A stretch of 64,000 nucleotides of DNA from a virus, in IMG/VR virus record IMGVR_UViG_3300023478_000001, positions 7,323 through 71,322 of that record. One strand, given 5' to 3'. A program made the position numbers and the translations under genes. The notes under the pieces are model-generated. The model was not told the DNA's origin. It saw only the letters and a program-made list of their open reading frames with translations, and did no database searches. Positions 238 through 48,820 of the stretch are shown piece by piece. How positions within the stretch are numbered: the stretch's first letter is position 1; the number at the start of each line of letters is the position of its first letter.

Positions 238-789
238 TTATATATTTTTTATTATGAATGGTGATTGTACACCACCACTAAATTTTTCTGCTGTTTCTAA
301 TGCTCTAATTATTCTATCTTTTGCAGAATAAGTTTGCATAGAACGTGTTTTTGATGAATTGTATAATGAACCTTTAGCATATTCTTCACCGCATCCAACT
401 GAATCATACTCATCAACTGATTCTCCTACTTGAAAATCTGAACCTATTTTAAATAATCTTCCTTGATATCCAACTAAAAATATACCGCCTTTCTCATCGC
501 CATCACTATATTTTTGTAAAAAACCGCCTTTACTAAAACATTTGCGTACTGCTTTAATAAAATCGGTACACATATATTCATATATGTCTTTATTACCTCG
601 TTTTTTTACTTTTAACGAAAATTGCAATAATTCAATCATTCTAAAACTAGAAGTACAACCAATTACAAAATCGCCAGTTATAAATACTTTTGGATCTTTT
701 CTAATAACTACATCTAACCCAGCAACTCCTGCAGAATCAGCTCCTATAATAACTTTTTCTTTATCAATAATTCCTACTATACACGTCAT
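238..789 (-). CDS. Ntn-hydrolase / proteasome-HslV-like peptidase
   Basis: N-terminal MTCIVG...IGADS and GCGEEYAKGSL motifs. Confidence 0.7.
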   Translation of the reverse strand: MTCIVGIIDKEKVIIGADSAGVAGLDVVIRKDPKVFITGDFVIGCTSSFRMIELLQFSLKVKKRGNKDIYEYMCTDFIKAVRKCFSKGGFLQKYSDGDEKGGIFLVGYQGRLFKIGSDFQVGESVDEYDSVGCGEEYAKGSLYNSSKTRSMQTYSAKDRIIRALETAEKFSGGVQSPFIIKNI

Positions 790-790
790 A

Positions 791-1033
791 TTAATGTAAT
801 TTAGTTAAACCATCATGCCAATTTGAATATGGAATTTTTTTTAAAGATACCGATAAGTCCTTATGTTTATCCCAAAAACTATTATAAATTGATCTATCTT
901 TACGTTCCTCTTCAGTACTAATTTCAACTAATTCTGTAAAAATATTATATAAATCAATTTTAGTTATTTTATGTTTTATAAAGTTATCAATAGCTGTAGA
1001 AAACTGTGTATATATTAATTCTCTATGTCCCAT
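791..1033 (-). CDS. Hypothetical protein
   Basis: 80-aa ORF tightly packed between neighbours. Confidence 0.6.
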   Translation of the reverse strand: MGHRELIYTQFSTAIDNFIKHKITKIDLYNIFTELVEISTEEERKDRSIYNSFWDKHKDLSVSLKKIPYSNWHDGLTKLH

Positions 1034-1356
1034 TATAACGAATCTACCATTAATAAATCTTGTTCTCTAAATAAAAGATATTCTTTATCATCAACTTTAA
1101 TTTTATCGCCTATCATATCCTTTTTATATAATACCATATCACCTGGTTTTACAGTCATTGGAATTTTTATACCACTTTGAGTATATATTCCATCTCCTAC
1201 CATTAATACCTTACCGAATACGGTTGTACCTCGTGTAACTGAATCAGTCAGTATAATACCACCTTTACTTTTTATTTCGCCTTTTCCAGCAAATTCTACT
1301 AGTACTCTATCGCCTAATGGTTTTAATTTTTTTCTCATATTATTTTGTTTCTTCAT
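1033..1356 (-). CDS. groES: Co-chaperonin GroES (Cpn10)
   Basis: LKPLGDRVLV...GGIIL...VKPGDMVLY...EYLLFREQDLL signature. Confidence 0.93.
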   Translation of the reverse strand: MKKQNNMRKKLKPLGDRVLVEFAGKGEIKSKGGIILTDSVTRGTTVFGKVLMVGDGIYTQSGIKIPMTVKPGDMVLYKKDMIGDKIKVDDKEYLLFREQDLLMVDSL

Positions 1357-3790: not shown

Positions 3791-3828
3791 TTTTTGTATT
3801 TAAATTTAGTTTTTATGTATTCTTATTG

Positions 3829-3860
3829 CTAATATACGAATAATTTTTTAATTATCCTAA
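3829..3860 (-). promoter_or_regulatory. Bacteroidota-type early promoter (representative copy; others at 11558, 26620, 33416, 33933, 43515, 63057, 63846)
   Basis: Recurrent TT(A)GGA/TTGTA-N~16-TTCGTATATTT(A/G) upstream of ORFs; resembles the -33/-7 TAnnTTTG consensus (exact TATCTTTG at 33933-33940). Confidence 0.75.
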
Positions 3861-3931
3861 TATTTTTAGTGTTTATTATTTGTTTTTACATGTCATGGTC
3901 ATGACCATACATTATAATTCTATTTAATTTA

Positions 3932-4885
3932 TTAAAAATTAAAAAATTTACTGGCAGTTTTTTGTTCATTAAGTACTAATCCCCATTTTAATACATCATA
4001 AAAATCTTGAAGTTTTCCTAATAATTCTCTTTCAAATATTTTTTCATGATTAATATAAGTATCTATAAATTTTGTTATTTCTGGTGGGTCTTTATATCCA
4101 GTAAATCCTACTGCATCTAATCCAAACGGATTACGTTTTAAATACACCCATTTTATTTTATCGCCGTTTTTCATTGGTGCGTATTTATATGGAGTTTTGT
4201 AATATTTTAATAAATCATTATACGCAATACCAGCTTTAACATGAGCAGGTGCACCCTTTTTAAAATCGAATAATTTTGTGCTCCCAACATTCATATATTT
4301 ACTTAGTTCCTTTACTGCAGAATTTTTAGCTATATCTGTGTTTGATAACTGTATCATCGAACTTTTGAATCCTAATATTATATCTGATATTGTACTTTGC
4401 GGTGTATCTTTTAATATTTCTATAAGTACTTTTGACATTAAATCTTGAAATGCTTTTGGAAATGATGAACGTATTACATCTAACCCTTTAACATCAAGTT
4501 TATCAACAGGTACACCATTATTAGAAATAATCCATTGAGCATATCTTTTTTTGGCTACCCAAAATCCTGCGCGTGCAACATATTCCTTTTTTATTTGTAA
4601 TCTGTGTTGTTGTACATTTAATATTTTATCTGCAAATATATCATAAAATTTATTTAAATAATTTTGCATTTCTCCTGCAATATTATCCACTTTTTTAGCT
4701 ATATTTGCAGGTGTGTCTTGTTCCCATTTAGGGTTTCGGTAGTCTAATAACGGTACTGCCGAAAAAAATACTGAATCTGTATCAATTTTCTCCCCGAAAG
4801 ATTAAACTAACGGGGAGAACGCATCGATATAGATATTGCTATCTACTGTAGCACCACCTATATCGAGTATTTTTTTTATTTTCAT
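3932..4885 (-). CDS. Family B DNA polymerase, C-terminal part (palm motif C and thumb), interrupted by a 42-nt insert with an in-frame TAA
   Basis: ATG 4885 gives MKIKKILDIGGATVDSNIYID[AFSPLV*SFGEKID]TDSVFFSAVP..., in frame with ORF 3932-4690 (KKRY, KGLD motifs). Confidence 0.88.
4781..4822 (-). other. 42-nt hairpin insertion in the PolB catalytic motif (candidate bypass element or micro-intron)
   Basis: 9-bp perfect stem (4788-4796/4811-4819) with a 14-nt loop holding in-frame TAA 4804-4802; flanked by ATC GAT and ATT GAT. Confidence 0.8.
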
Positions 4886-4901
4886 TTATTATATATTTTT
4901 A

Positions 4902-6674
4902 TTAATTTAAAACTAAATCATCATTTGGTTGCAATTCTTTAGCCGGTATTGTTGTTATAATTCCATTACGAGTTATAGTCATTTTAGTATTTGGACTAAT
5001 TTTAATAATTTTATTATTTTCTAACTCAATCTTCATCGGAGTTCCGCCAATTTCTTCATTATATTTAAGATTACACATATTCGCCGTTGACTTAATAATT
5101 AGCTGTCCTGTCGTTGTAACTGCTTCAGCATTTTCTCTATCATAAAAACGAAATGCGGGGAGACCCATTGTGCCATATAAACTATTAAGTAAAATTTTCT
5201 GTACAAGCTGTCGTTTTCCATAAAAATTATATTGTTCACTATCGCCAGATTTACCATATTTTTTCATTAAATTTTTATATTTTACTCGTTGATCAAACCA
5301 TAATGAAAGTATACCTGGAATACAACCTACTATATCTTTTCTGTACAAAACTCCATTAGTTGATACACTATAATCTTGCTCTTTTATAAGTTTAGCTAAG
5401 TTTTCCGAAGTTATAGTATTATTATCAATAGAATATGTTTTATTAGTATTATTTAAAAATTGTTGTGAATCCCAGTTAATAATTTTAGCAATTTTAGTTT
5501 CTGGCGAAATATTTAATGTCATAATAATAGATGGATACAATGATGTTAAATCTAAATCATATATCCAATCATGTTTACCAACTATTGGTTCTTTTACATA
5601 TGCACCAATAAATTTTCCCTTTCCCGCTTCTTTTAATGCTTTCATTTTTTCTCTTCTATCTGCAGGTTTATTAGGAGCAACTAAATTTTTACGTTTTAAA
5701 TAAGTTAATAATGCACCTTCTAAATATTTAGAAGAATATACAAAATCTTCATATGGTACATGACCTGAATGACAAATTCCTCTACATAAATCAATAAATT
5801 GTAGTTTCTTTTCTAATTTTACTACAATTTCAACATCTACTGTATTATATTCGACAAATTTATTAATATCTGTTTGAAATAAATCATCAAGGTTTCCTTC
5901 ATATTCAATTTTACCTTGATTTAGTTCAAGTTTACCAACGGTATCTAATCTATAATTAGGCAATTCATTATAATTGAATTTCTTATATAATGATAAATAA
6001 TCTAAGCAACTTACCCCCGCTAAAAAGAATCTTTGGCGATACGGTGAATAAAATGATTTTCCAATCGGTGATAATCTATTTGCGTAGTCTATTCCTAATA
6101 TTCGTTTTATACGATTAAATAAGTATGGAATATCAAAATAGTCAATATTCCAACCTGTTATAATATCTGGTGCTATATCTTCATATATTTCTAAAAATTT
6201 CAAACACATAGCTATTTCAGTTTTAAACGGTAACACTAATGCCTTTGATGTTTGTTTTGCTTGCATTTTACCGGTTTTATCCATTACAAGTACAACATAT
6301 TTATTACTAATATTATCGTGCAACCCAATAGCAGTCAGCTCGTTAGTTGATTCATTAACATTAGGTAATCCACTTTCCATTTCTACCTCAATATCAAATG
6401 TAAATACTTTAATACCAGTTGAAATTTCATCTGAATCTGTGTAAGTATCTACGAGTACTCTTGTAGTTTCAGGTACATCAGATTCAAAAAGATTAATGTC
6501 ATCCTTTGAAAACTTATATATCTTAGTTAGTTTATCACCATAAATTGATGTGTAACTACCATTAATATTTTTTTCATATGCGTATCGAGAGTATGGAAAC
6601 GAAATATATCCGTTAGTGTCATCCCAGATATGCATTAAATTCTTCTCCCTCTGATAATATATATTTTTATAAAT
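4902..6674 (-). CDS. Family B DNA polymerase, N-terminal part (3'-5' exonuclease, motifs A and B), ending in a Hint-like tail
   Basis: FDIE, GWNIDYFD, YDLDLTSLYPSII, KILLNSLYG; frame is open upstream of ATG 6635 to a possible ATT start at 6674. Confidence 0.93.
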   Translation of the reverse strand: MYKNIYYQREKNLMHIWDDTNGYISFPYSRYAYEKNINGSYTSIYGDKLTKIYKFSKDDINLFESDVPETTRVLVDTYTDSDEISTGIKVFTFDIEVEMESGLPNVNESTNELTAIGLHDNISNKYVVLVMDKTGKMQAKQTSKALVLPFKTEIAMCLKFLEIYEDIAPDIITGWNIDYFDIPYLFNRIKRILGIDYANRLSPIGKSFYSPYRQRFFLAGVSCLDYLSLYKKFNYNELPNYRLDTVGKLELNQGKIEYEGNLDDLFQTDINKFVEYNTVDVEIVVKLEKKLQFIDLCRGICHSGHVPYEDFVYSSKYLEGALLTYLKRKNLVAPNKPADRREKMKALKEAGKGKFIGAYVKEPIVGKHDWIYDLDLTSLYPSIIMTLNISPETKIAKIINWDSQQFLNNTNKTYSIDNNTITSENLAKLIKEQDYSVSTNGVLYRKDIVGCIPGILSLWFDQRVKYKNLMKKYGKSGDSEQYNFYGKRQLVQKILLNSLYGTMGLPAFRFYDRENAEAVTTTGQLIIKSTANMCNLKYNEEIGGTPMKIELENNKIIKISPNTKMTITRNGIITTIPAKELQPNDDLVLN

Positions 6675-7118
6675 AATTTCTAAATTTTAATTGTTATAAC
6701 TTTTTTTCTTACACCGTTTACTACGTTGATGTACTGCTAAATGAGTTGGTGGTAAATTTTTACCGCAAATATTGCATATTGTACGTGGTATGGGGTTTTA
6801 TTAGGTTCAGATATTCGTTATTTATGAATTTAAGATTTTGGTAAACGTAACCAATCATATGAATATGAACCATCTTTATGTTTTTGTGTAATAATAATAT
6901 TCCATAATTACCTTTCTTTGGTAGTAAACATTAACTTTTCTTAAATTTGTTTATTTCTGATATTGGATATCCATCTGGAAAACAAATATATTTTGTAGCA
7001 GTTGGGCTCATGTGTGATAAATTTATTTTATCATTCTCGTTTAGTATTATCATGATTGGTTCATTTTCCGCATCATAAACTGTATTCCTATTTTTACTTT
7101 CATAATTTTATTTATTAT

Positions 7119-12150: not shown

Positions 12151-13185
12151 TTATACTATTTCGCACGCATTTCCAGCACATGCTAATTCCCCAGTTAAAT
12201 CAGTAGTATCACGTTTTTCTATAATTTGTGTTACATCAATATCTTTTAATGTTTCCATTAATCGTTCGTATTCTTTTTTTGTAATATCCTGAAAAGGTGC
12301 CTGTTTATAAGTACCACCGTTATATGGCAATACAGATAATCCATTGTAAACTCTACGATTTTTCCACATCCATTCGCCTATTTCTTCCCATTCATCATCT
12401 TTTATAGAAACCGTGCATGATACATTATTTTGATTTTGACCTTTACGATATCCTTCGTGCACCCAATTTTCTGAAATATGTTTTACTCTTTCTAGTAAAT
12501 CAATTGGCGATTCATGACGAGTTATAGCTCCAATCGGTGCCTTTTGTGGTACTGATATAACTGCTTGTGTTTTTGGATTAAAAAATTCATCCTCAATTAA
12601 TTCAGCATGATTTTTCTTTAAGTATTTATATATTGATTCATCTTTACCAATTCGTACTCGTCTAATATAATAATCATTATGCCAAGCGTGAATTCCACTA
12701 CTTGTACCTAATACTAAACTTGTAGTACCCGCAGGTTTTGTTGTAGTTGTTCTGGATGCAGGATTAATTCCTATTATCTTGGCAATTACTTTATTAGTAT
12801 CATTTACAATATTCGCAGTTTCTTTAAAATCTAGTTTCATATTAGATTCTGATGCTATACCCGTCATACTTACTCCAATTAATGCATCTTTTTCGGTCGT
12901 TTTTCTCCAAATATCACGTAAATAATGAAAATCAGTATATCCTGCTTGTAGTGTACCTAAGAATGCTGCTGCTTTAGCTCTTTTATTAAAATCATCTTGA
13001 TTTTTTACTGAAGCCATATTAATTTCAGTTAAATTACAAAATTGAAATGGCCTTAGTGAAATTTCACAATTATGGACTAATAAGCCATCAGCAAAAAAGT
13101 TATGATTATCAGCTACCTCAATATCGTATACATCAGTATTTTTTTCTATTGTTATTTTTTTTATCTTAATTCGTTTTAATTTCAT
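12151..13185 (-). CDS. nrdJ: Class II ribonucleotide reductase, part 3 (39-aa IntC plus C-extein)
   Basis: VYDIEVADNHNFFADGLLVHN|CEISLRPFQFCNL; TTTKPAGT; C-terminal ACAGNAC. Confidence 0.92.
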   Translation of the reverse strand: MKLKRIKIKKITIEKNTDVYDIEVADNHNFFADGLLVHNCEISLRPFQFCNLTEINMASVKNQDDFNKRAKAAAFLGTLQAGYTDFHYLRDIWRKTTEKDALIGVSMTGIASESNMKLDFKETANIVNDTNKVIAKIIGINPASRTTTTKPAGTTSLVLGTSSGIHAWHNDYYIRRVRIGKDESIYKYLKKNHAELIEDEFFNPKTQAVISVPQKAPIGAITRHESPIDLLERVKHISENWVHEGYRKGQNQNNVSCTVSIKDDEWEEIGEWMWKNRRVYNGLSVLPYNGGTYKQAPFQDITKKEYERLMETLKDIDVTQIIEKRDTTDLTGELACAGNACEIV

Positions 13186-13281
13186 TTTGTATTCTTCTTA
13201 TTGGTTTCCATATTTTATCTTTCCAAAATCCTTTAATTTCAACAATTTTTGTAATTTCATTTTTTTCGTTATATATAAAAA

Positions 13282-14313
13282 TTAAATTTTCAATAAAACA
13301 TCACTTTCGGTTAAGTCTTTTGCTTCCACGTATCCACGATTTTCAGTAAACACCTTATGGTCAGGTGTCATCTTTATAATTGAACCATCTTCTAATTCCA
13401 ATGAAATAACATCAGCGTGTTTTCTAGTTAGTAACCCATTCGTAATCTGTTTTTTTTCAACTTTACAAGTAGATGTATTATATGATAAAATATTTGGTGC
13501 AGTACCTCCCCGTTCATGTAATTCTACCAGTTCTTTAATAGTCCAGGTCTTATCAGTATCGGTACTAATTACGGTTTCTGGTGCCAAACAACATGGATTT
13601 GTACCCCATTCTTGATCATTGGTAAAAAATATACCGGGCTCGCCTGCACCAGATTCTTTAATTCGTTCCCAAATTCCATTAAATTTTTGTTTGCGAATTT
13701 GATGTCGTAATATAACAACACTATTGTTGGCTCTACCACGCTGAGGATTCCGTACATACCAATCACCAGTTTTGCATGCTAGCATTTCGGTATCATTTAA
13801 ATTAAATAATGATATCATTGCTGCTCTACGAATACCACCTGCTAATACTGCATCTGCAATATGACACATAATATCGTGTGATTCTAAAGTTGTTAGTTGT
13901 GTTCTATCTTGTTTTTCACGCAGCATTCCTTCGATTTTAGTAATAGCCAATCTAAGTGGTTCGGGGCCAGGAGCCTTTCCTCCTGCAGTAATAAGTAATG
14001 CTCCTTTTTCTCTAATATCACTATAATCAAATTGAATATGCGCACTAATTTTTCCTGTATAGGATTTAAATAATGTTTTTATTGCATCTGACCATCCTAT
14101 GATACTATCTTGAATAACATATTTCCTATTATATTCATAATTTGGTTTTCTAATTTCTGGTAACTGTTCTACATGATGCTTTTGTACGCTATAGCCAACC
14201 CCCGTATTATGTACTACTTCTCCAGCTGCTAAACAGAAATTTTGTGTTCCTTTGATTGATAAATCATAATAATTACGAGTATCTTCAATAAATGTTTTTT
14301 TAATTATTTTCAT
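13282..14313 (-). CDS. nrdJ: Class II ribonucleotide reductase, part 2 (36-aa IntC, extein, 102-aa IntN)
   Basis: VVHN|TGVGYSVQ...AGGIRRAA...GTNPC|CLAPET...TPDH. Confidence 0.92.
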   Translation of the reverse strand: MKIIKKTFIEDTRNYYDLSIKGTQNFCLAAGEVVHNTGVGYSVQKHHVEQLPEIRKPNYEYNRKYVIQDSIIGWSDAIKTLFKSYTGKISAHIQFDYSDIREKGALLITAGGKAPGPEPLRLAITKIEGMLREKQDRTQLTTLESHDIMCHIADAVLAGGIRRAAMISLFNLNDTEMLACKTGDWYVRNPQRGRANNSVVILRHQIRKQKFNGIWERIKESGAGEPGIFFTNDQEWGTNPCCLAPETVISTDTDKTWTIKELVELHERGGTAPNILSYNTSTCKVEKKQITNGLLTRKHADVISLELEDGSIIKMTPDHKVFTENRGYVEAKDLTESDVLLKI

Positions 14314-14536
14314 ATTATAATTCTAATAATAATTTTTTATGTATATTTTTTATCCCAGTTTTAATAATATCAGTTTCCCACCAAACAAATACCTTTTTGC
14401 CAGTAAGTTGCTCTATACGTTGGATTCTGGTTGCATCCGTTTTCCAAGTTTCTCCTACAAGTTTACCTCGTATTACATCGGTTTCGTTATATAAAGCTGG
14501 GTTGCCGTGTCAATAATCACCATATAATAAAAACAT
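14314..14536 (-). pseudogene. Remnant of a Vsr/DUF559-like homing endonuclease between intein halves
   Basis: YGDY*HGNP...VWWETDI; truncated, with TGA at the Trp position. Confidence 0.7.
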
Positions 14537-14538
14537 AA

Positions 14539-15192
14539 TTATTTAGGAATTTCACTTTCATCAGCAAATTTTATGTCATCATCTTCGGTTAAATGTTGCG
14601 CTTCCACCCATCCTCTATTTGTTGTTAAAAATTTATGATCAGTGGTACATTTTATCACCTTGCCACTTTCTATTGTTAATTCCATTTTTGGTTTTGATGC
14701 AGTTGGCGTCATTCCAGCAAAAGTAGGATGCACCCAATTATATTTACCTGTCGTTTCATCGAGGGTCAATATATAATCATCAGTTGTTACATCAATAATA
14801 CGTTTATCACCATCTTTTGTTTTTATCAAAGTGTCAGGGTCAAAGCATCCGCCTAACAATAAAAACATAGTTTCTGAAAAACTATATATTGAATCTACCG
14901 GCAGGAATGCACAATTATAGATTCTTGCGTTATTAAGTTCAATTGGTCTGCCACCAAATTGCATTGACCTCATTGAGGGTAACACTTTTTTTGTATAAAC
15001 AAACTCCTCGTATAACTTAGTTATATCATCCTTTAATTCAGGATAAGATTTTATATGCATTTTTTTATTACGGTTTACAATTTCTAACCACGTTTCTCTA
15101 CGGTTCTCAATAGATAAATGTCTTGCGTATTTCATGTGTACTATAATATCGCTAAGTATTTTTTTATCTAACTCTACATTAGTATTGTTCAT
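14539..15192 (-). CDS. nrdJ: Class II ribonucleotide reductase, part 1 (N-extein plus 102-aa IntN)
   Basis: RETW...LPSMRSMQFGG...YNCAF...LLLGG|CFDPDT...TTDH. Confidence 0.92.
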   Translation of the reverse strand: MNNTNVELDKKILSDIIVHMKYARHLSIENRRETWLEIVNRNKKMHIKSYPELKDDITKLYEEFVYTKKVLPSMRSMQFGGRPIELNNARIYNCAFLPVDSIYSFSETMFLLLGGCFDPDTLIKTKDGDKRIIDVTTDDYILTLDETTGKYNWVHPTFAGMTPTASKPKMELTIESGKVIKCTTDHKFLTTNRGWVEAQHLTEDDDIKFADESEIPK

Positions 15193-15532: not shown

Positions 15533-16333
15533 TTATGTATTAAAAAAATCTTTAAATTTCATGTTGAGTTTATATTTTTGATAATTGTGGTTAAATACAT
15601 TCATATTAAAGGTTGGCATCGTTATTTCATTATATTTTCCAAGCGATACTCGTTTTTCAAAAATTAAATCTATATCCTTTGGATATTTTTTATTAGTATA
15701 TTCTGGATATTGATTTAATATTTTCTTGCTTGATTTATTTATAGGATATATGTATCTAAACATTAATCCTCTAATTCTAACTATTCCTTTGTATTCACAA
15801 AAATCATGAGTTAACCAAAATATTTTTTCTTTGTTTTCATATATAGCATTTTCTATACATAATTGTTTTGCGCTTCGTGGATGTATTTTTTCATGCGTTT
15901 CGATATCCATATATACACTTGTTTTAAAACTACCTAAATAACGAAAATTAGATGCTTGATAAACATAACCGCATTTTCCCATTATTCCATCAGCCATTGT
16001 ATATAAAAATTTTATATCTAATGATGTTTTTATCCATTTTATTAATAAACTTGTTGACTGAGAGCCAAAATTACTTTGATTTTTACTCGGTAAAAAACAC
16101 ATTTTGCCGATTTCTAAATAATCAGAACTTTTGAAATTATGCTTATAAAATATTTTATGAATTGTACCAAACGGTTGAGTTCCCCAACCCAAAGTTACAA
16201 CACCAACTAATTCTTCATTTTCAAAATAGCCAAGATAATGTTTTGTTAATCTAGGTAAAATTTTACTATAATGATATTTTTGTATAAAATCAATAGCTCT
16301 TTGCGGATAAATAGGTTTAATTATTAATTTCAT
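15533..16333 (-). CDS. Mom-like GNAT-fold DNA modification protein
   Basis: FIQKYHYS, LVGVVTLG, TMADG...GYVYQASNFRYLG. Confidence 0.8.
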   Translation of the reverse strand: MKLIIKPIYPQRAIDFIQKYHYSKILPRLTKHYLGYFENEELVGVVTLGWGTQPFGTIHKIFYKHNFKSSDYLEIGKMCFLPSKNQSNFGSQSTSLLIKWIKTSLDIKFLYTMADGIMGKCGYVYQASNFRYLGSFKTSVYMDIETHEKIHPRSAKQLCIENAIYENKEKIFWLTHDFCEYKGIVRIRGLMFRYIYPINKSSKKILNQYPEYTNKKYPKDIDLIFEKRVSLGKYNEITMPTFNMNVFNHNYQKYKLNMKFKDFFNT

Positions 16334-17728
16334 AAATCGAAAAATTTATTTGATTTTTTATTTTGAGCTGGAGTTGCTGATTCTTTATCTAAAACTTGAA
16401 GAGCGGTTTCAATTCTTGCTTTTGCTATTTTAAAATAATCAGCATTATCATCTATACCAATAAAATCATATCCAAGTTGTTTGCACGCTTTTCCTGTACT
16501 ACCACTACCCATAAATGGATCTAATACAATTCCGTTTGGTGGCGTTACCATTCTTACTAAATATTTCATTAGTTTGGTTGGTTTTAGAGTCGGATGATTA
16601 TTCTTTTTTGGTAATACGGAATTTCGTTCACTTCCATCTGGTCTGAATTTATTAGTGTTCATTCCATAAAGTTGTCCATTATCACGTTTTGCTGATTCTT
16701 TATACTCGAAATCATCTAATCCTTCATCCCTATCTTTTTTACTGGCTTTTGCACAATAGAAAAATCTCGATGCGTTTCCACTATAGCCGTGTTGATTATT
16801 TTGATTTGCGAACCCATTTAAAAAATTTGTATTAGTATCACTTTTATAACTAGATTTATCAGATGCTACTTTACCACTTTTTGTATCTGGAAATAAATCA
16901 GTTACTTCTTCACTACCATCATGTATAAAGTTTGCTGGCCATCTGCCATTGGGTTTTATAACATCCACCCTTTCAGATTTATTTTTAGTCATTCCCCACG
17001 TTTGATTATTAATATCAGTATCACGCTGAGACCGATTAATAGTACGAAGCTGAGAATTATCAATATCCAAATTTAATGGCACTCTACTTGCATCAATATT
17101 TATTCCACCTGTACCGTGTTTTATTACATTTTTAACTATCGTATTTTCTGAAAGTGGTTTTCTTGCCATTACAATTGGTTCATGAGCTGGTTTTAATGAT
17201 GTTCCCCAGCCTTCCCATTCTGAATTTCCCTTTGTAAGTATTTCCGCGTCATATCCAAAGTGTTTTATATTATTTCTATTAGCTGGGTCTGTAAGATACC
17301 CTGCACCTTTTGTTTTAACTGTCTGAACATCACCTCTTATTTTTTCACCGATTATTTCTCGTTTATTACCAAGTTGTTTATCAATCGCTTTACCAATATT
17401 ATAATTTTTTGGAAAACCGCTTCCGTAAACCCACATTATTTGGTCTCGTATTTCAAACCCCGCATCCTCAATATTTACAACCATTCTATGATAAGTTCTA
17501 GCTCCAGAAAATGATAATAAATATCCACCCGGTTTTAATACTCGTAAACATTCTTTCCATAATTCTACGGTTGGAACGTCATAATCCCATTTTTTACTCA
17601 TAAATTTTAAACCATATGGTGGATCGGTTACAATACTATCTACGGAGTTATCTTCTAATTCTTTCAATTTTATTTCAGATTTACCTAATAATATTTTCAT
17701 AAATCGAAAAATTTATTTGATTTTTTAT
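16328..17728. repeat. 34-bp exact direct repeat bracketing the 456-aa MTase gene
   Basis: tttcataaatcgaaaaatttatttgattttttat at 16328-16361 and 17695-17728. Confidence 0.9.
16330..17700 (-). CDS. DNA amino-methyltransferase (beta class, DPPY)
   Basis: VTDPPYG...HPTLKP...LDPFMGSGST. Confidence 0.92.
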   Translation of the reverse strand: MKILLGKSEIKLKELEDNSVDSIVTDPPYGLKFMSKKWDYDVPTVELWKECLRVLKPGGYLLSFSGARTYHRMVVNIEDAGFEIRDQIMWVYGSGFPKNYNIGKAIDKQLGNKREIIGEKIRGDVQTVKTKGAGYLTDPANRNNIKHFGYDAEILTKGNSEWEGWGTSLKPAHEPIVMARKPLSENTIVKNVIKHGTGGINIDASRVPLNLDIDNSQLRTINRSQRDTDINNQTWGMTKNKSERVDVIKPNGRWPANFIHDGSEEVTDLFPDTKSGKVASDKSSYKSDTNTNFLNGFANQNNQHGYSGNASRFFYCAKASKKDRDEGLDDFEYKESAKRDNGQLYGMNTNKFRPDGSERNSVLPKKNNHPTLKPTKLMKYLVRMVTPPNGIVLDPFMGSGSTGKACKQLGYDFIGIDDNADYFKIAKARIETALQVLDKESATPAQNKKSNKFFDL

Positions 17729-18398
17729 CTTTTATCATTAATCGTTCACTCATTACATCAAAATATTCCTGTAATTGTTCAATTCCAATAAAATCTCTAT
17801 TTAAGTTTTTACACGCAACTCCAGTTGTACCGCTTCCTGCGAACATATCCAATACAATATCATTTTCATTTGTATGTATTCTTAATAACCGTTCTAGTAA
17901 TTCCACTGGTTTTTCAGTTGGATGTTTTCGTTTTTTACTACTTGGACTTGAATACTTAAATGTTTTTAATTGAGTAGCATATCCTGTATTATTATAAGTA
18001 CAGTTTTTTCCTCTTACATATACCATAAATTCTAAATTTGAAATATATTTTCCATTACCAAATGGTACTGGATTTGGTTTATCCCAAACTAGCAATGTTG
18101 TTGAAAACCCTAAGTTTTCCCAATAACTCATTATTTTTGATATTTGTTTATTTGAGCAAAATACAACTAAATTTACTATTTTGCAAACACGTTGAATTTC
18201 ACTAAATATAAGATTCATATTAAATCCATTACTGATGAAATTTATATGAGTATCTTTTACCAGTTTTCGTTGCGCGAATTCACTTTTACCACCACCATGA
18301 TTTTCTAATTTATATGGAGGGTCTACTAATATAAAATCAATCGAGTTATTCGGTATATTTTTTAATTCGTCATAACAGTTTCCATGTATTAATTTCAT
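17697..18398 (-). CDS. DNA amino-methyltransferase (beta class, DPPY)
   Basis: LVDPPY...HPTEKP...LDMFAGSGTT. Confidence 0.92.
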   Translation of the reverse strand: MKLIHGNCYDELKNIPNNSIDFILVDPPYKLENHGGGKSEFAQRKLVKDTHINFISNGFNMNLIFSEIQRVCKIVNLVVFCSNKQISKIMSYWENLGFSTTLLVWDKPNPVPFGNGKYISNLEFMVYVRGKNCTYNNTGYATQLKTFKYSSPSSKKRKHPTEKPVELLERLLRIHTNENDIVLDMFAGSGTTGVACKNLNRDFIGIEQLQEYFDVMSERLMIKDKKSNKFFDL

Positions 18399-18920: not shown

Positions 18921-19457
18921 CTAACCCATATTTAATAAACCAGACAACAATGTATGCATAAAACTATACATATTAAAAAAAAGTAGAAATGGAAGTAACA
19001 CTCCCATGTTTTCAAGATATTTTTTATGTAAAAGTTTCTTTTGCATGAGTGCTCCGTTATTTGATTCTTTAGTAGTTAATATTCCATTCGATGAAGTGCC
19101 ATCATAAACTTGAATAAATCCAGAGTTTGTATCCATTTTACAAGGAAATGTGATACCATCTGGCCCAAATCTGTTTTTCACAATATGAACCCTTGCAGTA
19201 TTGTTTAATTTATCTTTTGCTTTTCTACTCCAACTCATTATAAAATCTGCATTCATTACCTTTGCATATGAATCAGCTATTTTATCTGCTTCAATTATTT
19301 CACTATCAATTGCTGAATTATGAGTGTAAATCTCATTAGCAAAAAACATATGAGTATCATCTACTGTAATATCAACCGTTTCTTCTTCACCAATCAGTTG
19401 AATTGATTCTATTTCATCTAATTCAAAAGATTCTGTATTTAATTTATGTTCTTTCAT
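18921..19457 (-). CDS. gp41/DnaB-like helicase, part 3 (47-aa IntC plus C-extein)
   Basis: VDITVDDTHMFFANEIYTHN|SAIDSE...KNRFGPDG. Confidence 0.9.
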   Translation of the reverse strand: MKEHKLNTESFELDEIESIQLIGEEETVDITVDDTHMFFANEIYTHNSAIDSEIIEADKIADSYAKVMNADFIMSWSRKAKDKLNNTARVHIVKNRFGPDGITFPCKMDTNSGFIQVYDGTSSNGILTTKESNNGALMQKKLLHKKYLENMGVLLPFLLFFNMYSFMHTLLSGLLNMG

Positions 19458-19558
19458 TTATAAAATTTAAACATTTATCTATAATCTGTTGTTTATCATT
19501 TTTTCCACTTCTTGTTTTTAAAAATTATCTTTTTGTGTTTTAAGTTTTTTTGTTAAGA

Positions 19559-20752
19559 TCATTTTTCCATTTTTTTTAAACCATCTTCTTTTCCATATTT
19601 TTCAATATAATGATTTTCTGAAAAGGTTGCTTTCTTTTTTGAAACTTTTTTTGTAAAAAGCTTATCACCTACTTTTAGACCAGTTTCAATTGATTTTTGT
19701 TTGCCGTACTGTGTTGGGAAAAGATGTCTTGCAGAGCATTTAACTACTTTACCACTTTTTAATTTTATTTTATAAACTGGTTGCGTTTTCTTTTCAAATA
19801 CATGAGTCACATTTTTATATCCATTATGTGTAAGAACTTTATCACCTTTCTTAATACTACCGATTTCGACCTTACCCAATGGCGTATCTACTTTGGTATC
19901 CAATGTTAAACATCGATTTGTCTGGCTGGCTGTCCAGACCGGAATATTCTTCATTCCGCTTAATCCTCGTAATTCAATATAAACTCCGCCTTGCTCTTGA
20001 TATGTTGAATCATTTCTACCAGTTGAAGATAACATTAAATCCGCATAATCAATAATGATTAAATCTGGTTTTTTACCAGCTGCTATCATTTGTTCAATAT
20101 GTAATTCTATTTGCTTAGTACTCACTCCACGCGGTGGAAAATACTTAATCATTATATTACCTTGTAACGCCTTTATTTTAGAATATATCTCAGCTTGTTT
20201 ATCTTTTAATTGGTTTGTTGCAATATGAGTAATTACAGTATCATATCTAGCACCCACATAAGATTCAGAAAGTTCCATAGTATAATGAGCTACTTGTTTT
20301 CCTATACTCGATGCATATGCACCAATACAAGTTAAAATCCAAGTATTATGTGATAATATACCATTGCCATAAAAACATTGAACTTTATCAACCATTAAAT
20401 CATATAGAATTTTAATTTTTCCTTCTTTAATTTTTCTAATTTTTGCAGTACCGTTTTCAGTTTCTATAATATCATTTTCAATATTAATATCCTTAACAAG
20501 TTTCCACTCTCCATTTACTTTCAATTTATGTTCCCAACCGCATTGCAATGTTTTATTATTAGTAAAATATAAACGTATGGATTTTTGAGAAACGGTTCTA
20601 CAAATTGATGGAACTGAATAGTATCCATATGGGGTTTTCACTTTTACATCATAATGCATTTCATGAATATATTCAGCCTTTTCAGGAATATTATTATTTT
20701 TGAAAAAGGTATCCAACCGTACAGTTTCTCGTACTTTACGTGTATGTATCAT
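19559..20752 (-). CDS. gp41/DnaB-like helicase, part 2 (136-aa IntC, extein, IntN)
   Basis: GNGILSHN|TWIL...IIIDYADL...TASQTNR|CLTLDT...SARHLF. Confidence 0.92.
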   Translation of the reverse strand: MIHTRKVRETVRLDTFFKNNNIPEKAEYIHEMHYDVKVKTPYGYYSVPSICRTVSQKSIRLYFTNNKTLQCGWEHKLKVNGEWKLVKDINIENDIIETENGTAKIRKIKEGKIKILYDLMVDKVQCFYGNGILSHNTWILTCIGAYASSIGKQVAHYTMELSESYVGARYDTVITHIATNQLKDKQAEIYSKIKALQGNIMIKYFPPRGVSTKQIELHIEQMIAAGKKPDLIIIDYADLMLSSTGRNDSTYQEQGGVYIELRGLSGMKNIPVWTASQTNRCLTLDTKVDTPLGKVEIGSIKKGDKVLTHNGYKNVTHVFEKKTQPVYKIKLKSGKVVKCSARHLFPTQYGKQKSIETGLKVGDKLFTKKVSKKKATFSENHYIEKYGKEDGLKKMEK

Positions 20753-23594: not shown

Positions 23595-24857
23595 TTAATC
23601 ATCTATACCAGGTGCTTTAGTATCTAAAGTATTTTCACTGGTATCTAAAGTATTCACTTTATATGATAGAATTTCTTCATGACATATTCGTTCATATATT
23701 TGTTTCTTTAAATCATTATCCGCTTCTAATAAAGTTGGAAAATCTTTTGAAAGAAATTTATGAATTTCGCCAGTTGCAACATCTGTATAAGTATACCATG
23801 CACCTGCTTGAGTTATAAGTTTAGTTTCTTTCATTACCGATAACCATGAACCAACATCATCAATTCCTCTGTTGAAATAAATTTCAAAATCAGCTGCACG
23901 TAATGGCGGGCCCATTCTATTTTTAATAACTTGGCATCGAACTTTCATTCCAATAATTTTTTTATCCTTATTTTTAATTTGTCCCATGTTTTTTAATCGT
24001 AATCGTACTGATGCATGAAAAGCTAAAGCTTTACCACCACTAGTAGTCCACGGGTCTCCAAACATTGCACCCATTTTAACTCTAAGTTGATTTGTAAAAA
24101 TTAATGATATGTTTTGTCTACCTATTAAGTTAGTAATTTTCCTCATTGCTTTAGAAATAATAATAGCTTTTTGAGTAGCGTATCCCGCTTGATCGTAATC
24201 TCCCGCTAATTCAACTTTCGTACTAGCACCTGCAACTGAATCGACTACAATAGTTACTAATCGTTCTCTATCGGTTTCCCTCACTTTTTGAATTATAGCT
24301 TCAATATATTCAAATATATCCTCTACTGTATCTGCTGATATATAAAGTAGTTTAGAAACATCTACACCGATTGCTTCTAAAAATTCTCTACTAACTGCAG
24401 TTTCGGTATCAATTAGAACAGCCACGCCCCCTTGCTTTTGTGTTTCTGCAAGGGAATGCGCTGATACTAATGATTTTCCTGAATTATGATTTAAAATTCC
24501 ATTTCCAAAGTATGAATGATCTTTACTGTCTACTTTAATATCTACGATACGATGTAATCCAATGTACTCTACTGATTTAACTACTTGATATACATCATCA
24601 TTTGTATAAATTTTTGTTATTTTTGGTTTTAATTTATCAGTAGATATCCAACCTCGCGAAGTAAAAAATTTGTGTTTAGCAGAAGTTTTTATTTTTTTAC
24701 CATCATTTAATGTAACTAAAAAAGTAGGTAATACCCCTTTATCAAAATAATCAACAATAGGTACAAATTTATTATTTTTAGTTTTTACTGATATAGTTCT
24801 TCCATCATTTAATAATGTCTGTACTTGTGATATTGGAATTTGTGTTGCTGTACTCAT
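23595..24857 (-). CDS. uvsX: RecA/UvsX recombinase, part 2 (125-aa IntC plus C-extein)
   Basis: GNGILNHN|SGKSL...IDTE...VVDSVA...FTNQLR...GGKALAFHASVRL. Confidence 0.93.
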   Translation of the reverse strand: MSTATQIPISQVQTLLNDGRTISVKTKNNKFVPIVDYFDKGVLPTFLVTLNDGKKIKTSAKHKFFTSRGWISTDKLKPKITKIYTNDDVYQVVKSVEYIGLHRIVDIKVDSKDHSYFGNGILNHNSGKSLVSAHSLAETQKQGGVAVLIDTETAVSREFLEAIGVDVSKLLYISADTVEDIFEYIEAIIQKVRETDRERLVTIVVDSVAGASTKVELAGDYDQAGYATQKAIIISKAMRKITNLIGRQNISLIFTNQLRVKMGAMFGDPWTTSGGKALAFHASVRLRLKNMGQIKNKDKKIIGMKVRCQVIKNRMGPPLRAADFEIYFNRGIDDVGSWLSVMKETKLITQAGAWYTYTDVATGEIHKFLSKDFPTLLEADNDLKKQIYERICHEEILSYKVNTLDTSENTLDTKAPGIDD

Positions 24858-25014
24858 TTAGTCATTATTTATAACTGTTTTTTCTTAATTTTTTCTGTAT
24901 TATTTTATTTAAATGAAACTCGCGAGTTTCATTTTTTATATTCTTTTGAGTAATATTCTACTAACTTTTCTTTTTTTCATAATACTAATATTAGTATTAC
25001 GGAAATAGAAAAAA

Positions 25015-25284
25015 TCATTCAATAATTACATCAATAAGTGTATCTTCCGTTACACATTGTTCTAATCCGGTTATTTCTACGATTCTTCCAACTGGAAATC
25101 CACCATAAGCACGGTTCGAAATCGCTATATCCAAAGTTGCACACCCAGAAGATACCCAGCCCATTACATTTGTAGGGGCTTCATCAGAATCTAAAAAGAA
25201 TGCAACTTTTTGGCCTTTGGTTTTTTTGTTTAGCTCGGCCGCAAGAATATCCGCTAAGTTTTCGTCTTTTCCATCTTTTGCCAT
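25015..25284 (-). CDS. uvsX: RecA/UvsX recombinase, part 1 (N-extein plus 13-aa IntN)
   Basis: SSGCATLDIAI...GGFPVGRIVEITGLEQ|CVTEDTLIDVIIE*. Confidence 0.92.
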   Translation of the reverse strand: MAKDGKDENLADILAAELNKKTKGQKVAFFLDSDEAPTNVMGWVSSGCATLDIAISNRAYGGFPVGRIVEITGLEQCVTEDTLIDVIIE

Positions 25285-31188: not shown

Positions 31189-32484
31189 TTAAACCTGCGA
31201 ATAATCAGTTCCCCACGATGCTTTTACTGGATATCCAAAACTTTCTAATATGTTTTTTATATTTTTTGCTTCATTTACTCCATTATTTTTGTCATATTCA
31301 AAAAGAAATGCGTCATATGAATATAGACACAACGAGTTTATTCCATTTTCATATAATTTTGAAATTATTTTCATATTTGTTTCTGTTTCAGTTGCTTGTA
31401 ATAAATAATTGAAAACTTTTTGCGGTGTAGCATTATCTATCCAATTCAAAAATATTTTTCTGCCAGATGGTGTTTTAACATATCCATATTTTTTAGCTTT
31501 GTTATATATTTTTTGAATATATAAGTCTACCTTATTAAAAAACGGAATTTTTTTATCTTCCGTATTAACCCCTCCATAAAGTATTCTAAACGTTCTAGAT
31601 TTTGATTCTGTATAATTACAACCATACATATTAGCCAACCATAGGTGCGTCGATGTTTTTGGTAATTTAAAATTTATCATCTTTGCAATAAGTCGTACAT
31701 GATATGCATCGTAATCAAATGATAAAAATATTTTATCAAATCCCGGTATAAAAATTTCACGTGTGCCATCATTTTTATTAAGAGCTCCATAATTAATACC
31801 AGCATGATGATTAGATGGTCGTGATGTTATTGTATATGGATTATATTCTGTATAAACTTTGTTTTCTTTAATATGTTTTATTGCATTCGGAAATCTATTT
31901 ATAAATTTTTTCTTATCTATATGAATACCATGTTGTTCTAATTTTGATAAAATCGGTATCATTACTTGGTCTACCCAATTATCTGTAAATGAGTATAATA
32001 TAATATTTATTAAGGGGGTAGTAATACCTCGTAATACCTCAATCCACTTCATTATAGGAATGCTTTTACCTAAATCATCGTGTAACCCTAATCGAGTATA
32101 AAACCCCGTTAAATCTCCTATTTTTTCATCAATCTGATATAACTCATTATTATTAAAAAAGTTATCTGCTTGCATATCATATAAATTTTGAATGCCTAAA
32201 TTTGTCTGCAATAATCCTTTTTTATAAAATGTTTTTTTCTTTTGAGTTGACCGAGTTAAATCAATATTAAGTCGTTCGCAATCATTATGATTAAAAGGTA
32301 AAATATAATCCATTTTATATAATCCTTGATCAGTTTCATCATCGCGAAACCTCACATATAAAAATGATATATCATTATTCATTGGATGTGTTTCCGTATC
32401 TGCCCAAACGGGAAATATCAAACACGGTTCAGTATTCCAATAATTTAAAAAATTATCTATATCTTTTTTAGTTTCTAGTATCAT
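31189..32484 (-). CDS. Family A DNA polymerase-like protein (compact)
   Basis: TITSRPS, motif A FDYDAYHVRL, motif B SKSRTFRILYG, NYLLQATE, motif C YSYDAFLF. Confidence 0.85.
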   Translation of the reverse strand: MILETKKDIDNFLNYWNTEPCLIFPVWADTETHPMNNDISFLYVRFRDDETDQGLYKMDYILPFNHNDCERLNIDLTRSTQKKKTFYKKGLLQTNLGIQNLYDMQADNFFNNNELYQIDEKIGDLTGFYTRLGLHDDLGKSIPIMKWIEVLRGITTPLINIILYSFTDNWVDQVMIPILSKLEQHGIHIDKKKFINRFPNAIKHIKENKVYTEYNPYTITSRPSNHHAGINYGALNKNDGTREIFIPGFDKIFLSFDYDAYHVRLIAKMINFKLPKTSTHLWLANMYGCNYTESKSRTFRILYGGVNTEDKKIPFFNKVDLYIQKIYNKAKKYGYVKTPSGRKIFLNWIDNATPQKVFNYLLQATETETNMKIISKLYENGINSLCLYSYDAFLFEYDKNNGVNEAKNIKNILESFGYPVKASWGTDYSQV

Positions 32485-47633: not shown

Positions 47634-48820
47634 TTAGCTAGAGAGACTATATACTCCTCTACTGCGGATGTTTATTGCTGCATTATAATCTGCATCAAGT
47701 TCGTTTCCACAAGATATACATTTATATTTTTCTCCGTTTCTGGAGTGTTTATTTATGTTACCACAATTAGAGCATGTCTGACTGGTATAAGCTGGTGAAA
47801 CCTTCACCATTTTTATACCATTAACCAGACATATATCTGTTAGTTTTTCAATTGTTTTAGTATAAGACAATCTTTGTAATTTATTCATTACTTTATGATA
47901 AATCTTGCCTTTAGTATTTTTCTTAACATCTAATAAGTTCTCAATTACAAGTGTACTTATATTATCAAGTTTTAATTGTTTACTATAATAATTAATTAAA
48001 TTATCTCTATGCTTTAATAATTTCTTAAATTTTTTGCTACCTTGTTCTTTATTTGAAAGTTTAGTATAAACTTTTAAAAGTTCTTTGCCAATAAATTCTT
48101 TATTAGAAGTTGTAATTAACTTTTTATAACCAAGATCGATTCCAATGGATTTACCAGTAGTTTTAAGTTCAGGTGCTTCTTTAAACCAAACTAGATTAAT
48201 ATAATAATCTTTGCCTATTTGCTTTAATTGTATATTGCTTTTTAAGGTATAACCACTATCTAATAAACTATTAGAATGTTTATGTTGCTTTAGTGGTAAT
48301 TTTATATTAATTGCTCTAGTACCTTTCTTATTAAAATATGGAAGTGTTATTTTAACAAAGTTATCAAAGTGATTTCCAATTTTAATATCAAAAAAGCGTT
48401 CGTCTAAATTAATAGATATATTTTTTAAAGAAGACATTTTAAAATATTTAGTCAAATAAACAGGTGTTAGTTTTAACTTTGAAAATTTAGTATTAACAAA
48501 CTTAGAGTCAGGATGCATTTTAGCCATATAAGCATATACCTTTTTATAAGTGTAATAGCGTTTAGCTTTTGCTTTCTTGCTTTGAGAACGGATTATACTA
48601 GAAGCATGTTTATAAATTAAGTTTTTATATCTACTATGCTTAATTATTTTAGTTGGAAGTATTTTGCTAGATAAATTAGATTTTAAGGGTAATTTTCCAG
48701 TTATAATATAAGTTATGTAAGTTTTTAAATCATTTTTTAGCTAAAAAATAATGCATCAAGTATTACTAACTTATTTTTATTAGCAATATTAACTATATTA
48801 TGTTTTGACGTTTTAATCAT
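47634..48820 (-). CDS. tnpB: TnpB RNA-guided nuclease (frameshift near 48740)
   Basis: RuvC motifs GIDLG, VIENL, DADYNAAINI; PAYTSQTCSNCG...CISCG Zn finger; N-terminus MIKTSKH from ATG 48820 is in another frame. Confidence 0.9.

Follow-up and report, generated by a model that had tools for sequence, protein, structure and literature searches.

The window analysed here is a stretch of 64,000 nucleotides (nt) of viral DNA, corresponding to positions 7,323 to 71,322 of the IMG/VR virus record IMGVR_UViG_3300023478_000001 (71,322 b, rated 31% complete). It is AT-rich (GC content 0.25–0.35) and carries a set of T4-like replisome genes that encode the clamp, gp32, a gp41-like helicase, UvsX, an RNase H-like protein and NrdJ. 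On the minus strand, its gene for the family B DNA polymerase (PolB) is divided into two open reading frames, ORF1 and ORF2. Intein-like sequence is found at the division, and 42 nt containing an in-frame stop codon and a predicted hairpin are inserted in catalytic motif C. The arrangement makes ORF2 a candidate for translational bypass, in which ribosomes would skip these 42 nt; we put the probability of this reading at roughly 55%.

The native part of ORF1 includes the exonuclease domain, the motif A region (DLDLTSLYPS) and the motif B region (KILLNSLYG). ORF1 matches Pfam DNA_pol_B_exo1 (4.7e-21) and DNA_pol_B (1.3e-27) as well as PHROG 262 (2.5e-128), and is collinear with the PolB of all 26 IMG/VR relatives through residue 530–533. 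It is followed by a 16-nt spacer, which on inspection of the sequence contains no homing endonuclease gene, and which ends in a TAA directly before the ATG of ORF2 and in its frame. ORF2 reads MKIKKILDIGGATVDSNIYID AFSPLV (stop) SFGEKID TDSVFF..., and the part beyond the insert matches Pfam DNA_pol_B (1.1e-08) and PHROG 262 (1e-46). After the ATG region of ORF2, the next canonical in-frame start is a GUG at 4690, beyond motif C.

In the relatives (44–73% identity), PolB is unsplit in 26 cases out of 26, and the corresponding sequence is uninterrupted: ...NIKYNKELGT(K/T)DVDSNIYIDTDSVFFSAVPLLD... or ...ELGT(K/T)DVDSNIYIDTDSVFF.... Since the relatives read through, the window has an insertion between EEIGG and ATVDS, placing the split past motif B and 10 residues before motif C. 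The split and the ends quoted for it in an earlier, sequence-only reading of this DNA (the original prediction) are real; the interval that it gave, 4853–5051, has as its exact limits the Ile codon that opens the first IGG and the Gly codon that closes the second. The features of the locus are listed in Table 1.

Table 1. Features of the split PolB gene in the window and of the PolB gene of the phage LR756508.1
Feature	Position	Strand	Description
ORF1	6635..4902	-	577 amino acids (aa), ends ...NEEIGGTPMKIELENNKIIKISPNTKMTITRNGIITTIPAKELQPNDDLVLN, then TAA TAA
ORF1 native PolB part	5046..6635	-	residues 1-530, ends ...NLKYNEEIGG
ORF1 C-terminal extension (tail)	4905..5045	-	47 aa, TPMKIE...DDLVLN
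Intercistronic spacer	4886..4904	-	ORF1 stop TAA 4902-4904, second in-frame TAA, AT-rich 16 nt
ORF2 start and 11-aa head	4853..4885	-	MKIKKILDIGG; ATG at 4885
5' stem-loop (predicted)	4824..4866	-	arms 4849-4866 / 4824-4841, 18 nt, 83% complementary; ends at the proposed take-off codon
Native palm strand	4823..4852	-	ATVDSNIYID; aligns with (K/T)DVDSNIYID of relatives
Gap hairpin (predicted)	4780..4829	-	lower 7-bp and upper perfect 9-bp stem, 14-nt loop with UAA
42-nt insert	4781..4822	-	39-nt gap (GCG...AUU) and proposed landing codon GAT 4781-4783
ORF2 remainder past the landing codon	3932..4780	-	TDSVFF..., rest of motif C, KKRY region, thumb, C-terminal ...SKFFNF, stop
Weaker hairpin (predicted)	4734..4764	-	about 17 nt past the landing codon; inverted repeat of 10 nt, 90%
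LR756508.1 PolB	L068 208-3276, L069 475-2352		pieces split at the window's site; two further inteins

The tail of ORF1 resembles part of an intein. Searched as 49 residues, it matches Pfam Intein_splicing over profile positions 49–94 of 155 with an E value of 0.0017 and 18.6 bits, which is below the cut-off of 35.8. Several genes of the window are broken by split inteins, namely NrdJ (three pieces), the helicase (two pieces) and UvsX (with an N-intein (IntN) of 13 residues), and the original prediction was sound in using these as its reference. BLASTP aligns the tail with the IntN of the second NrdJ piece (E 8e-6), and gives no alignment with the other three of the four window inteins. A sequence search of PDB with the tail returned two matches only, both to one archaeal RadA intein, with E of about 1.1 and in the matching register. 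The AlphaFold2 (AF2) model of the tail has four strands and a predicted local distance difference test (pLDDT) score of 88.2, although its six-row alignment included four genuine intein pieces, which is a bias. In Foldseek, the model's first 13 ranks are all inteins, with template modelling (TM) scores of 0.68–0.76 and none at E <= 0.001. In VIA-align, all 29 rows are inteins or hedgehog Hint domains, the top 13 having Z values of 6.5–4.8, below the tool's caution line of 8. The model aligns with residues 50–97 of the Npu DnaE IntN, its second half; no more than half a domain is present. These matches suggest that the tail is Hint-derived and equivalent to the second half of an IntN, as had been predicted from its parallels with the window's own fragments; the likeness in sequence is beyond chance but modest.

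The residues needed for splicing are missing, as the original prediction had stated. There is no block A Cys or Ser, since the tail begins TPMK straight after the native EEIGG. Where the four window inteins have the block B xxxH, the tail has SPNTKM; a cysteine-less PolB intein has been reported to tolerate the loss of the block B His (PMC10189870, in the part available). The 11-aa head of ORF2 has no HN, and the residue that follows it is Ala rather than Cys, Ser or Thr. With no nucleophile, no block B His and no terminal HN or Asn, protein splicing by tail and head is excluded on sequence grounds. In this the PolB module differs from the split inteins of the window's NrdJ, gp41-like helicase and UvsX, which look like working ones.

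A search of the protein database with the ORF2 head returned one match, P0008, a fragment of an unsplit PolB and no relative of the head. Of the two IGG motifs that the original prediction placed at the borders of the module, both are present. The second, however, is part of the 5' arm of an RNA stem-loop and not the border of an intein. This stem uses an unusual Ser codon (AGC) together with the codons for LDIGG, so the second IGG is at least partly a feature of RNA structure; it may also be a cassette-borne copy of the target.

Homologous tails are present in six other proteins: P0007, P0013 and P0009–P0012. An all-against-all HMMER search identified P0007 (48 aa, on a 1058-nt contig), which is 42% identical to the tail without gaps (pairwise BLASTP E 9e-15). 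Searching phage records with tblastn led to LR756508.1, an uncultured 484-kb phage whose PolB ORF1, here P0009, ends ...YYNKKIGKD followed by a homologous tail of 43 residues. Its ORF2 lies about 4 kb downstream of ORF1 and begins MKTKKIKNI..., with which MKIKKILDI of the window can be aligned; in both, MK(I/T)KKI at the start of ORF2 leads into the native strand that precedes motif C. A profile made from three tails found five ORF1-type PolBs that have the same tail at their end. One of them, P0013 (589 aa, on an 8937-nt contig), shares 47% identity with the ORF1 of the window, tail included. Of 52 loci related to P0013 in IMG/VR (up to 84% identical), 49 have an unsplit gene and three fail to cover the site. 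All seven sequences end 40–50 aa past ...YN(K/E)E(L/I)G(G/K), and all seven tails are free of His and Cys, in keeping with the prediction of a non-splicing module, while sharing the residues G, E, E, R, G, K, L and D.

The presence of the same tail in distant lineages, with close kin lacking it, is the signature of a mobile cassette, and the split cassette looks mobile and sporadic from these sequences. A like pattern of mobility is described for the MobA element in the accessible part of Manning and Atkins (bioRxiv 10.1101/2022.08.31.505936). The homologues of the tail in LR756508.1, P0007 and P0013, and of the head in LR756508.1, bear out the view that the remnant is conserved and has not been left to random decay. 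Conservation of the tail favours the proposal of the original prediction that it has been retained for a function, which would most plausibly be docking. Other searches yielded no further members: a word-index protein search with residues 500–577 of ORF1 gave no matches, viral contigs searched with P0007 or the tail alignment gave none, and a scan of metagenome contigs with the back-translated tail gave three unrelated loci (a small protein twice and a large multi-pass membrane protein). In LR756508.1, the intercistronic region of about 4 kb holds two paralogous genes without assigned function and a deaminase gene. The two further inteins of this PolB lie within the motif B region of ORF1 (KILIN/SVYG) and at the pol-c site of ORF2; P0011, a relative, has a third intein.

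The description of the gene as a PolB split by a degenerate intein module is borne out by tail and head, but it overlooked an in-frame stop codon and a hairpin that decide whether ORF2 can make a polymerase half. The insert of 42 nt, absent from all 26 relatives, sits between YID and TDS, within motif C. Because of its in-frame TAA (4802–4804), the frame of ORF2 stops after 27 codons, six codons past ...NIYID. Removal of 4781–4822 gives back the YIDTDS of the relatives exactly. The codons on the two sides match (AUC GAU ... AUU GAU), such that GAU at 4823–4825 and GAU at 4781–4783 can be read by one transfer RNA (tRNA), and removal at any point within the AUYGAU repeat leads to the same product.

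The insert is predicted to form most of a strong hairpin. In its lower stem of 7 base pairs (bp), UAUCGAU on the take-off side (4823–4829) pairs with AUUGAUA on the landing side (4780–4786), and the upper stem pairs 4811–4819 with 4788–4796. In this prediction, a single helix has the take-off codon in its 5' strand and the landing codon in its 3' strand. In isolation, 54 nt of this region have a predicted folding energy of -23.0 kcal/mol (z -5.66), and none of 200 shuffles was as stable. Within the window the pattern CTCCCCG-14 nt-CGGGGAG is unique, with zero expected from 100 shuffles, and the whole 71-kb record holds no second copy; no other perfect 9-bp stem in the 64 kb combines at least six GC pairs with a loop of at most 20 nt. 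A GAG resembling a small Shine–Dalgarno (SD) sequence is placed at 4790–4792, 6 nt before the landing codon, with AAAAUU as the spacer. By chance, GAG stands exactly 6 nt upstream of 14 of the 1543 GAT sites (0.9%), while any of GAG, GGG, GGA or AGG stands 5–7 nt upstream of 120 of them (7.8%). The real SD sequences of this phage lie 7–9 nt from the ATG.

A second strong structure precedes the insert. The 5' stem-loop, an interrupted stem of 18 bp spanning codons 6–21 of ORF2, folds at -19.6 kcal/mol, compared with -5.2 +/- 2.1 for synonymous recodings (z -6.8; 0 of 300 as stable), and four control segments put through the same test gave z values from -1.1 to +0.6. The head of LR756508.1, where there is an intein and no gap, folds at -6.1 kcal/mol only, which ties the strong upstream stem-loop to the gap rather than to the head. 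Past the landing codon, the weaker hairpin has -7.3 against -2.2 +/- 1.9 kcal/mol (z -2.7), with 3.3% of recodings as stable; it is a possible forward barrier. The whole region of 161 nt folds at z -5.48. An inverted repeat of 19 nt is also found within ORF2 at 4630–4710 (minus strand), about 100 nt past the landing codon, with 84% complementarity and a perfect core of 11 nt. A long-range pairing of 11 nt between AAAAAAAUACU and AGUAUUUUUUU (4866–4876 / 4762–4772) was given little weight, there being 17 such perfect pairs in the 64 kb. An Rfam search of 4500–5200 returned nothing but one 9-bit match to transfer-messenger RNA (tmRNA), and a scan for promoters and terminators showed no relevant feature.

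No second copy of the 42-nt element was found. The hairpin and landing pattern had no matches in viral contigs, degenerate NIYID-gap-DTDSVFF patterns had none in viral or in metagenome contigs, and protein searches turned up no other sequence with the element. A looser gap pattern hit three viral loci, all of them false (two non-PolB proteins and one unsplit PolB). The bare hairpin pattern hit 29 viral loci, all unrelated and mostly in GC-rich contexts.

The insert lies exactly at YxD/TDS, the site known in family B polymerases as pol-c and occupied by inteins, among them the split intein in PolB of Nanoarchaeum equitans (PMC549080, in the part available). An intein occupies the same site in ORF2 of LR756508.1, which reads ...EYCVYTD / SCPGF...(312 aa)...SIVVHN / TDSVFY and matches Pfam Intein_splicing with E 1.1e-6. 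The insert shares its exact site with the pol-c inteins and differs from them in being 14 codons with a stop, in having no intein blocks and in not being removable as protein. Given that it sits at the pol-c homing site, the probable selective value of the 42 nt would be an anti-homing role, in which the DNA target is destroyed while the protein stays unchanged. We would advance only tentatively the fuller proposal, that a mobile, intein-derived gene-splitting cassette carries a shield which erases the pol-c homing site and leaves the catalytic motif of the protein unchanged.

The sole route that we see to an active enzyme is a programmed bypass in which GAU21 (or AUC20) is the take-off codon and its match 42 nt further on the landing codon. 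Under this reading, a cassette would have invaded the PolB gene, splitting it 10 codons before motif C and placing 42 nt into motif C. ORF1 would have gained its 47-aa tail from the second half of an IntN, and ORF2 its 11-aa head resembling the start of a C-intein (IntC). Tail and head, having lost the splicing residues, would dock the polymerase halves to one another non-covalently. Translation of ORF2 would proceed to Asp21 (GAU), or to the preceding Ile codon (AUC), where take-off would occur. The ribosome would skip the UAA-bearing hairpin, and the peptidyl-tRNA would re-pair at GAU (or AUU) 42 nt downstream, with the GAG 6 nt upstream positioning the landing. The strong 5' stem-loop might refold behind the ribosome and so aid its forward movement. 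The product of the hop would read ...SNIYIDTDSVFF..., as in all relatives, while ribosomes that do not hop would end after 27 residues.

To our knowledge, programmed bypass of tens of nucleotides in bacteria and phages is essentially one system, that of T4 gene 60 and the MobA-element homologues. The open-access literature that we searched describes neither this way of splitting PolB nor a bypass within the DNA polymerase gene of a phage. The MobA-element cases of bypass in the accessible part of Manning and Atkins all lie in the topoisomerase gene. In that account, the MobA/gene 60 element extends the C-terminus of ORF1 by about 44 aa, and ORF2 receives from it a head, a target copy and a cassette of 20–50 nt. 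The same account describes take-off at Asp GAU/GAC in several clades, and frequent loss of the endonuclease.

The likeness of the PolB locus to T4 gene 39/mobA/gene 60 is considerable in its layout. In both, an essential replication gene is split, ORF1 has an extension of about 45 aa, and ORF2 has a short head, a native stretch and an insert in a metal-binding motif. Both have matched take-off and landing codons, a take-off codon within the 5' side of a stem-loop, and a GAG at 6 nt with an AU-rich spacer (GAG AUUAUU GGA in the T4 gene 60 record). The strong stem-loop upstream of the insert and the pairing of the matched codons in one helix likewise recall T4 gene 60. The gap in the window falls within the 20–50 nt of the gene 60 cassettes, and the endonuclease gene that is absent here can be lost there. 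In other respects the two differ. The host gene is PolB in the window and Topo2L in T4, and the window's tail, which appears Hint-derived, has no sequence similarity to gp39. The window has neither a stop nor a clearly hungry codon right after take-off, its hairpin lies inside the gap, has a 14-nt loop and also pairs the landing codon, and its leader peptide is 21 aa long as opposed to 46. With another host gene and no likeness to the gp39 extension, the locus is no homologue of the MobA/gene 60 element. The insert is therefore not filed here as a member of the gene 60 family, and is proposed by analogy to work like one.

Other systems share single traits with the locus. Fractured genes (Dassa et al. 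2009, PMC2677866, in the part available), in which a split intein is accompanied by a homing endonuclease gene that stands free, likewise consist of two cistrons with IntN-like and IntC-like ends. A split intein is also known in PolB1 of the T4-like phage Aes123 (PDB 9hth; PMC11923092, in the part available). The window's PolB differs from fractured genes in keeping the second half of an IntN and some 7–11 residues of an IntC only, without trans-splicing. The two-subunit gp43A/gp43B polymerases, cited as a precedent in the original prediction, do establish that T4-like PolB can be encoded by two cistrons; they are found in Aeromonas phages 25 and 44RR (PMC2988022, in the part available) and in Acinetobacter phage ZZ1 (ZZ1 record), and for phage 25 co-purification and activity of the two subunits are reported (PMC2988022). 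As a precedent for the site they do not serve, since the ZZ1 gene is split before motif B (KLLINSLYG lies in 43B), while the window's split is after motif B and the motif is in ORF1; nor does ZZ1 show the intein-like tail that the window has.

The byp elements in the mitochondria of Magnusiomyces capitatus are 27–55 nt long, present in many copies per genome and without an SD sequence, according to the accessible part of Manning and Atkins. They resemble the window's element as short, relatively GC-rich, structured inserts with matching flanking codons in an AT-rich genome, but that element has a single copy in 71 kb and a GAG resembling an SD sequence. The split reductase encoded by the nrdA-a/mobE/nrdA-b locus of phage Aeh1 depends for its function on cassette-borne C- and N-terminal extensions, which have persisted since the split (Manning and Atkins, same part). 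Here the gene is another one, and the tails are not reported there as intein-derived.

Several observations weigh against bypass. The element is a singleton, so neither covariation nor proven selection on the gap itself can be adduced for it. Take-off is followed by GCG, a codon which is not a stop and not especially rare (78 of 18,141 codons, or 4.3 per 1000), and the stop comes six codons after take-off, unlike in most gene 60-type cassettes. GAG is a near-cognate landing triplet for tRNA-Asp, which the Asp take-off clades tend to avoid (Manning and Atkins, in the part available). The nascent peptide is just 21 aa long, and BLASTP gives no alignment of the tail with the extension of T4 gp39. 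A second polymerase gene is possible in a record rated so incomplete. One sequencing run has this DNA and is probably its source, and contigs hide rare variants; two other runs of the same study have short, unlike pieces only. The absence of GAY triplets from the gap is uninformative, with a chance probability of 31%.

The main rival is that the gene is dead or dying, the 42 nt having either been inserted recently, disabling it, or been left as a scar when a pol-c intein was lost imprecisely, in which case the phage would rely on another polymerase or be a defective variant. We regard this as unlikely. The uniqueness of the element, the intein at the same site in a relative, and the incomplete record all speak for it. 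So does a weak resemblance of AFSPLV to GFEPIV, residues 4–9 of the LR756508.1 intein, with CCCCG(G)TT shared in the DNA. A candidate for the other polymerase is present at 31189–32484 (minus strand), a compact family A polymerase-like protein (PolA-like) of 431 aa with weak Pfam and PDB matches to the Klenow fragment. This gene, however, occurs with 57–58% identity in three relatives that also have an unsplit PolB, two of which are complete (288 kb each), and its coexistence with an unsplit PolB indicates that it is not a replacement. Moreover, the split gene shows no sign of decay. Its 866 codons outside the cassette are all open, and the native N and C termini are intact. The identity of the C-part relative to that of the N-part is 0.91 between the window and 15 relatives, compared with 0.86 +/- 0.06 in 77 pairs of intact relatives; conservation past the stop is thus undiminished, with no excess divergence with respect to ORF1. 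Nor is there a variant contig at a depth of 285. A deletion scar would leave unexplained the perfect 9-bp stem, the paired and matched codons, the spacing of the GAG and the stem-loop of z -6.8.

The remaining alternatives would let the gene function in other ways. Removal of the 42 nt before translation, either through cutting and religation of the helix in messenger RNA (mRNA) or through precise deletion of the DNA between the 6-nt repeats in part of the population, would account for the pairing of take-off and landing sequences at the base of one hairpin, and for excision anywhere within the AUYGAU repeat giving the same product. Precise deletion is known to be favoured where a palindrome is flanked by short direct repeats. 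We know of no bacterial or phage mRNA splicing of such a kind, Rfam finds nothing in the region beyond the tmRNA match, and the contigs examined, which drop rare variants, contain no joint or indel; this possibility seems rather improbable. It is very improbable that the polymerase consists of three pieces, with a 27-aa ORF2a and a restart at AUU or GAU behind GGGGAG that would yield a third polypeptide from IDTDS. The GGGGAG does lie just upstream of an in-frame AUU, but GGAG stands 3 nt away from AUU, as against 7–9 nt at real starts, the next canonical start is past motif C, and the strand NIYI would be stranded on a 27-aa peptide. Read-through of the TAA is hard to credit, even though the insert is in frame (42 = 14 x 3). 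It would place the 14-aa insertion AFSPLVxSFGEKID in motif C and separate the YID strand from TDS in the metal-binding turn, a stretch reported to be invariant across all PolBs (PMC549080, in the part available). TAA is also the commonest stop, ending 41 of 62 genes, and no tRNA gene was found in the window; a phage suppressor tRNA or an altered genetic code was rejected on the same grounds. An artefact of assembly or sequencing might be considered for any metagenome contig, and here is scarcely conceivable. An independent Logan contig from a second assembler (6607 b, k-mer depth 285) is identical over 3800–6800, with 0 differences and 0 gaps, which also disposes of the possibility that an intact intein was collapsed by the assembler.

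If the fuller proposal is true, selfish elements in essential phage genes would have in programmed bypass a third general option besides inteins and introns, and bypass would not be a curiosity of T4 gene 60. A second, unrelated cassette, placed in the catalytic motif of a DNA polymerase and with a different hairpin geometry and a leader of 21 residues, would separate the essential features of bypass from those that are accidents of T4, and the anti-homing role would be directly testable against a pol-c intein endonuclease. The conserved tails of dead half-inteins would be a natural instance of intein sequence that came to serve subunit docking, and as such of interest to protein engineers. 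For phage annotation, knowledge of the pattern is helpful, as gene callers shorten or miss such genes; the callable ORF here begins past motif C.

The three other interrupted genes of the window are all on the minus strand. The NrdJ-like class II ribonucleotide reductase (12151–15192) consists of three cistrons (14539–15192, 13282–14313 and 12151–13185) with two split inteins; the gaps between cistrons are 225 and 96 nt, and an endonuclease gene is absent between the pieces. In the split DnaB/gp41-like helicase (18921–20752), the IntN ends the cistron at 19559–20752 and the IntC starts that at 18921–19457. UvsX/RecA (23595–25284) has an atypically split intein: the first cistron ends in the 13-residue IntN (CVTEDTLIDVIIE), and the second opens with about 125 intein residues ending ...GILNHN/SGKS. 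The 157-nt spacer between them contains a hairpin.

A Mom-like gene adjoins two N6/N4 DNA methylase genes at 15533–18398 (minus strand). Both methylases end in ...KKSNKFFDL, as a result of which the genes after them have an identical upstream sequence of 25 nt. This ending resembles the PolB C-terminus ...SKFFNF, and the two may share a clamp-binding peptide. Next to the replication genes are a proteasome-subunit-like protein (238–789, minus strand; below the Pfam cut-off) and a Cpn10/GroES homologue (1033–1356, minus strand). A TnpB-like gene (47634–48527, minus strand), with a Cas12f1-like TNB domain and OrfB_IS605, is situated among the phage structural genes.

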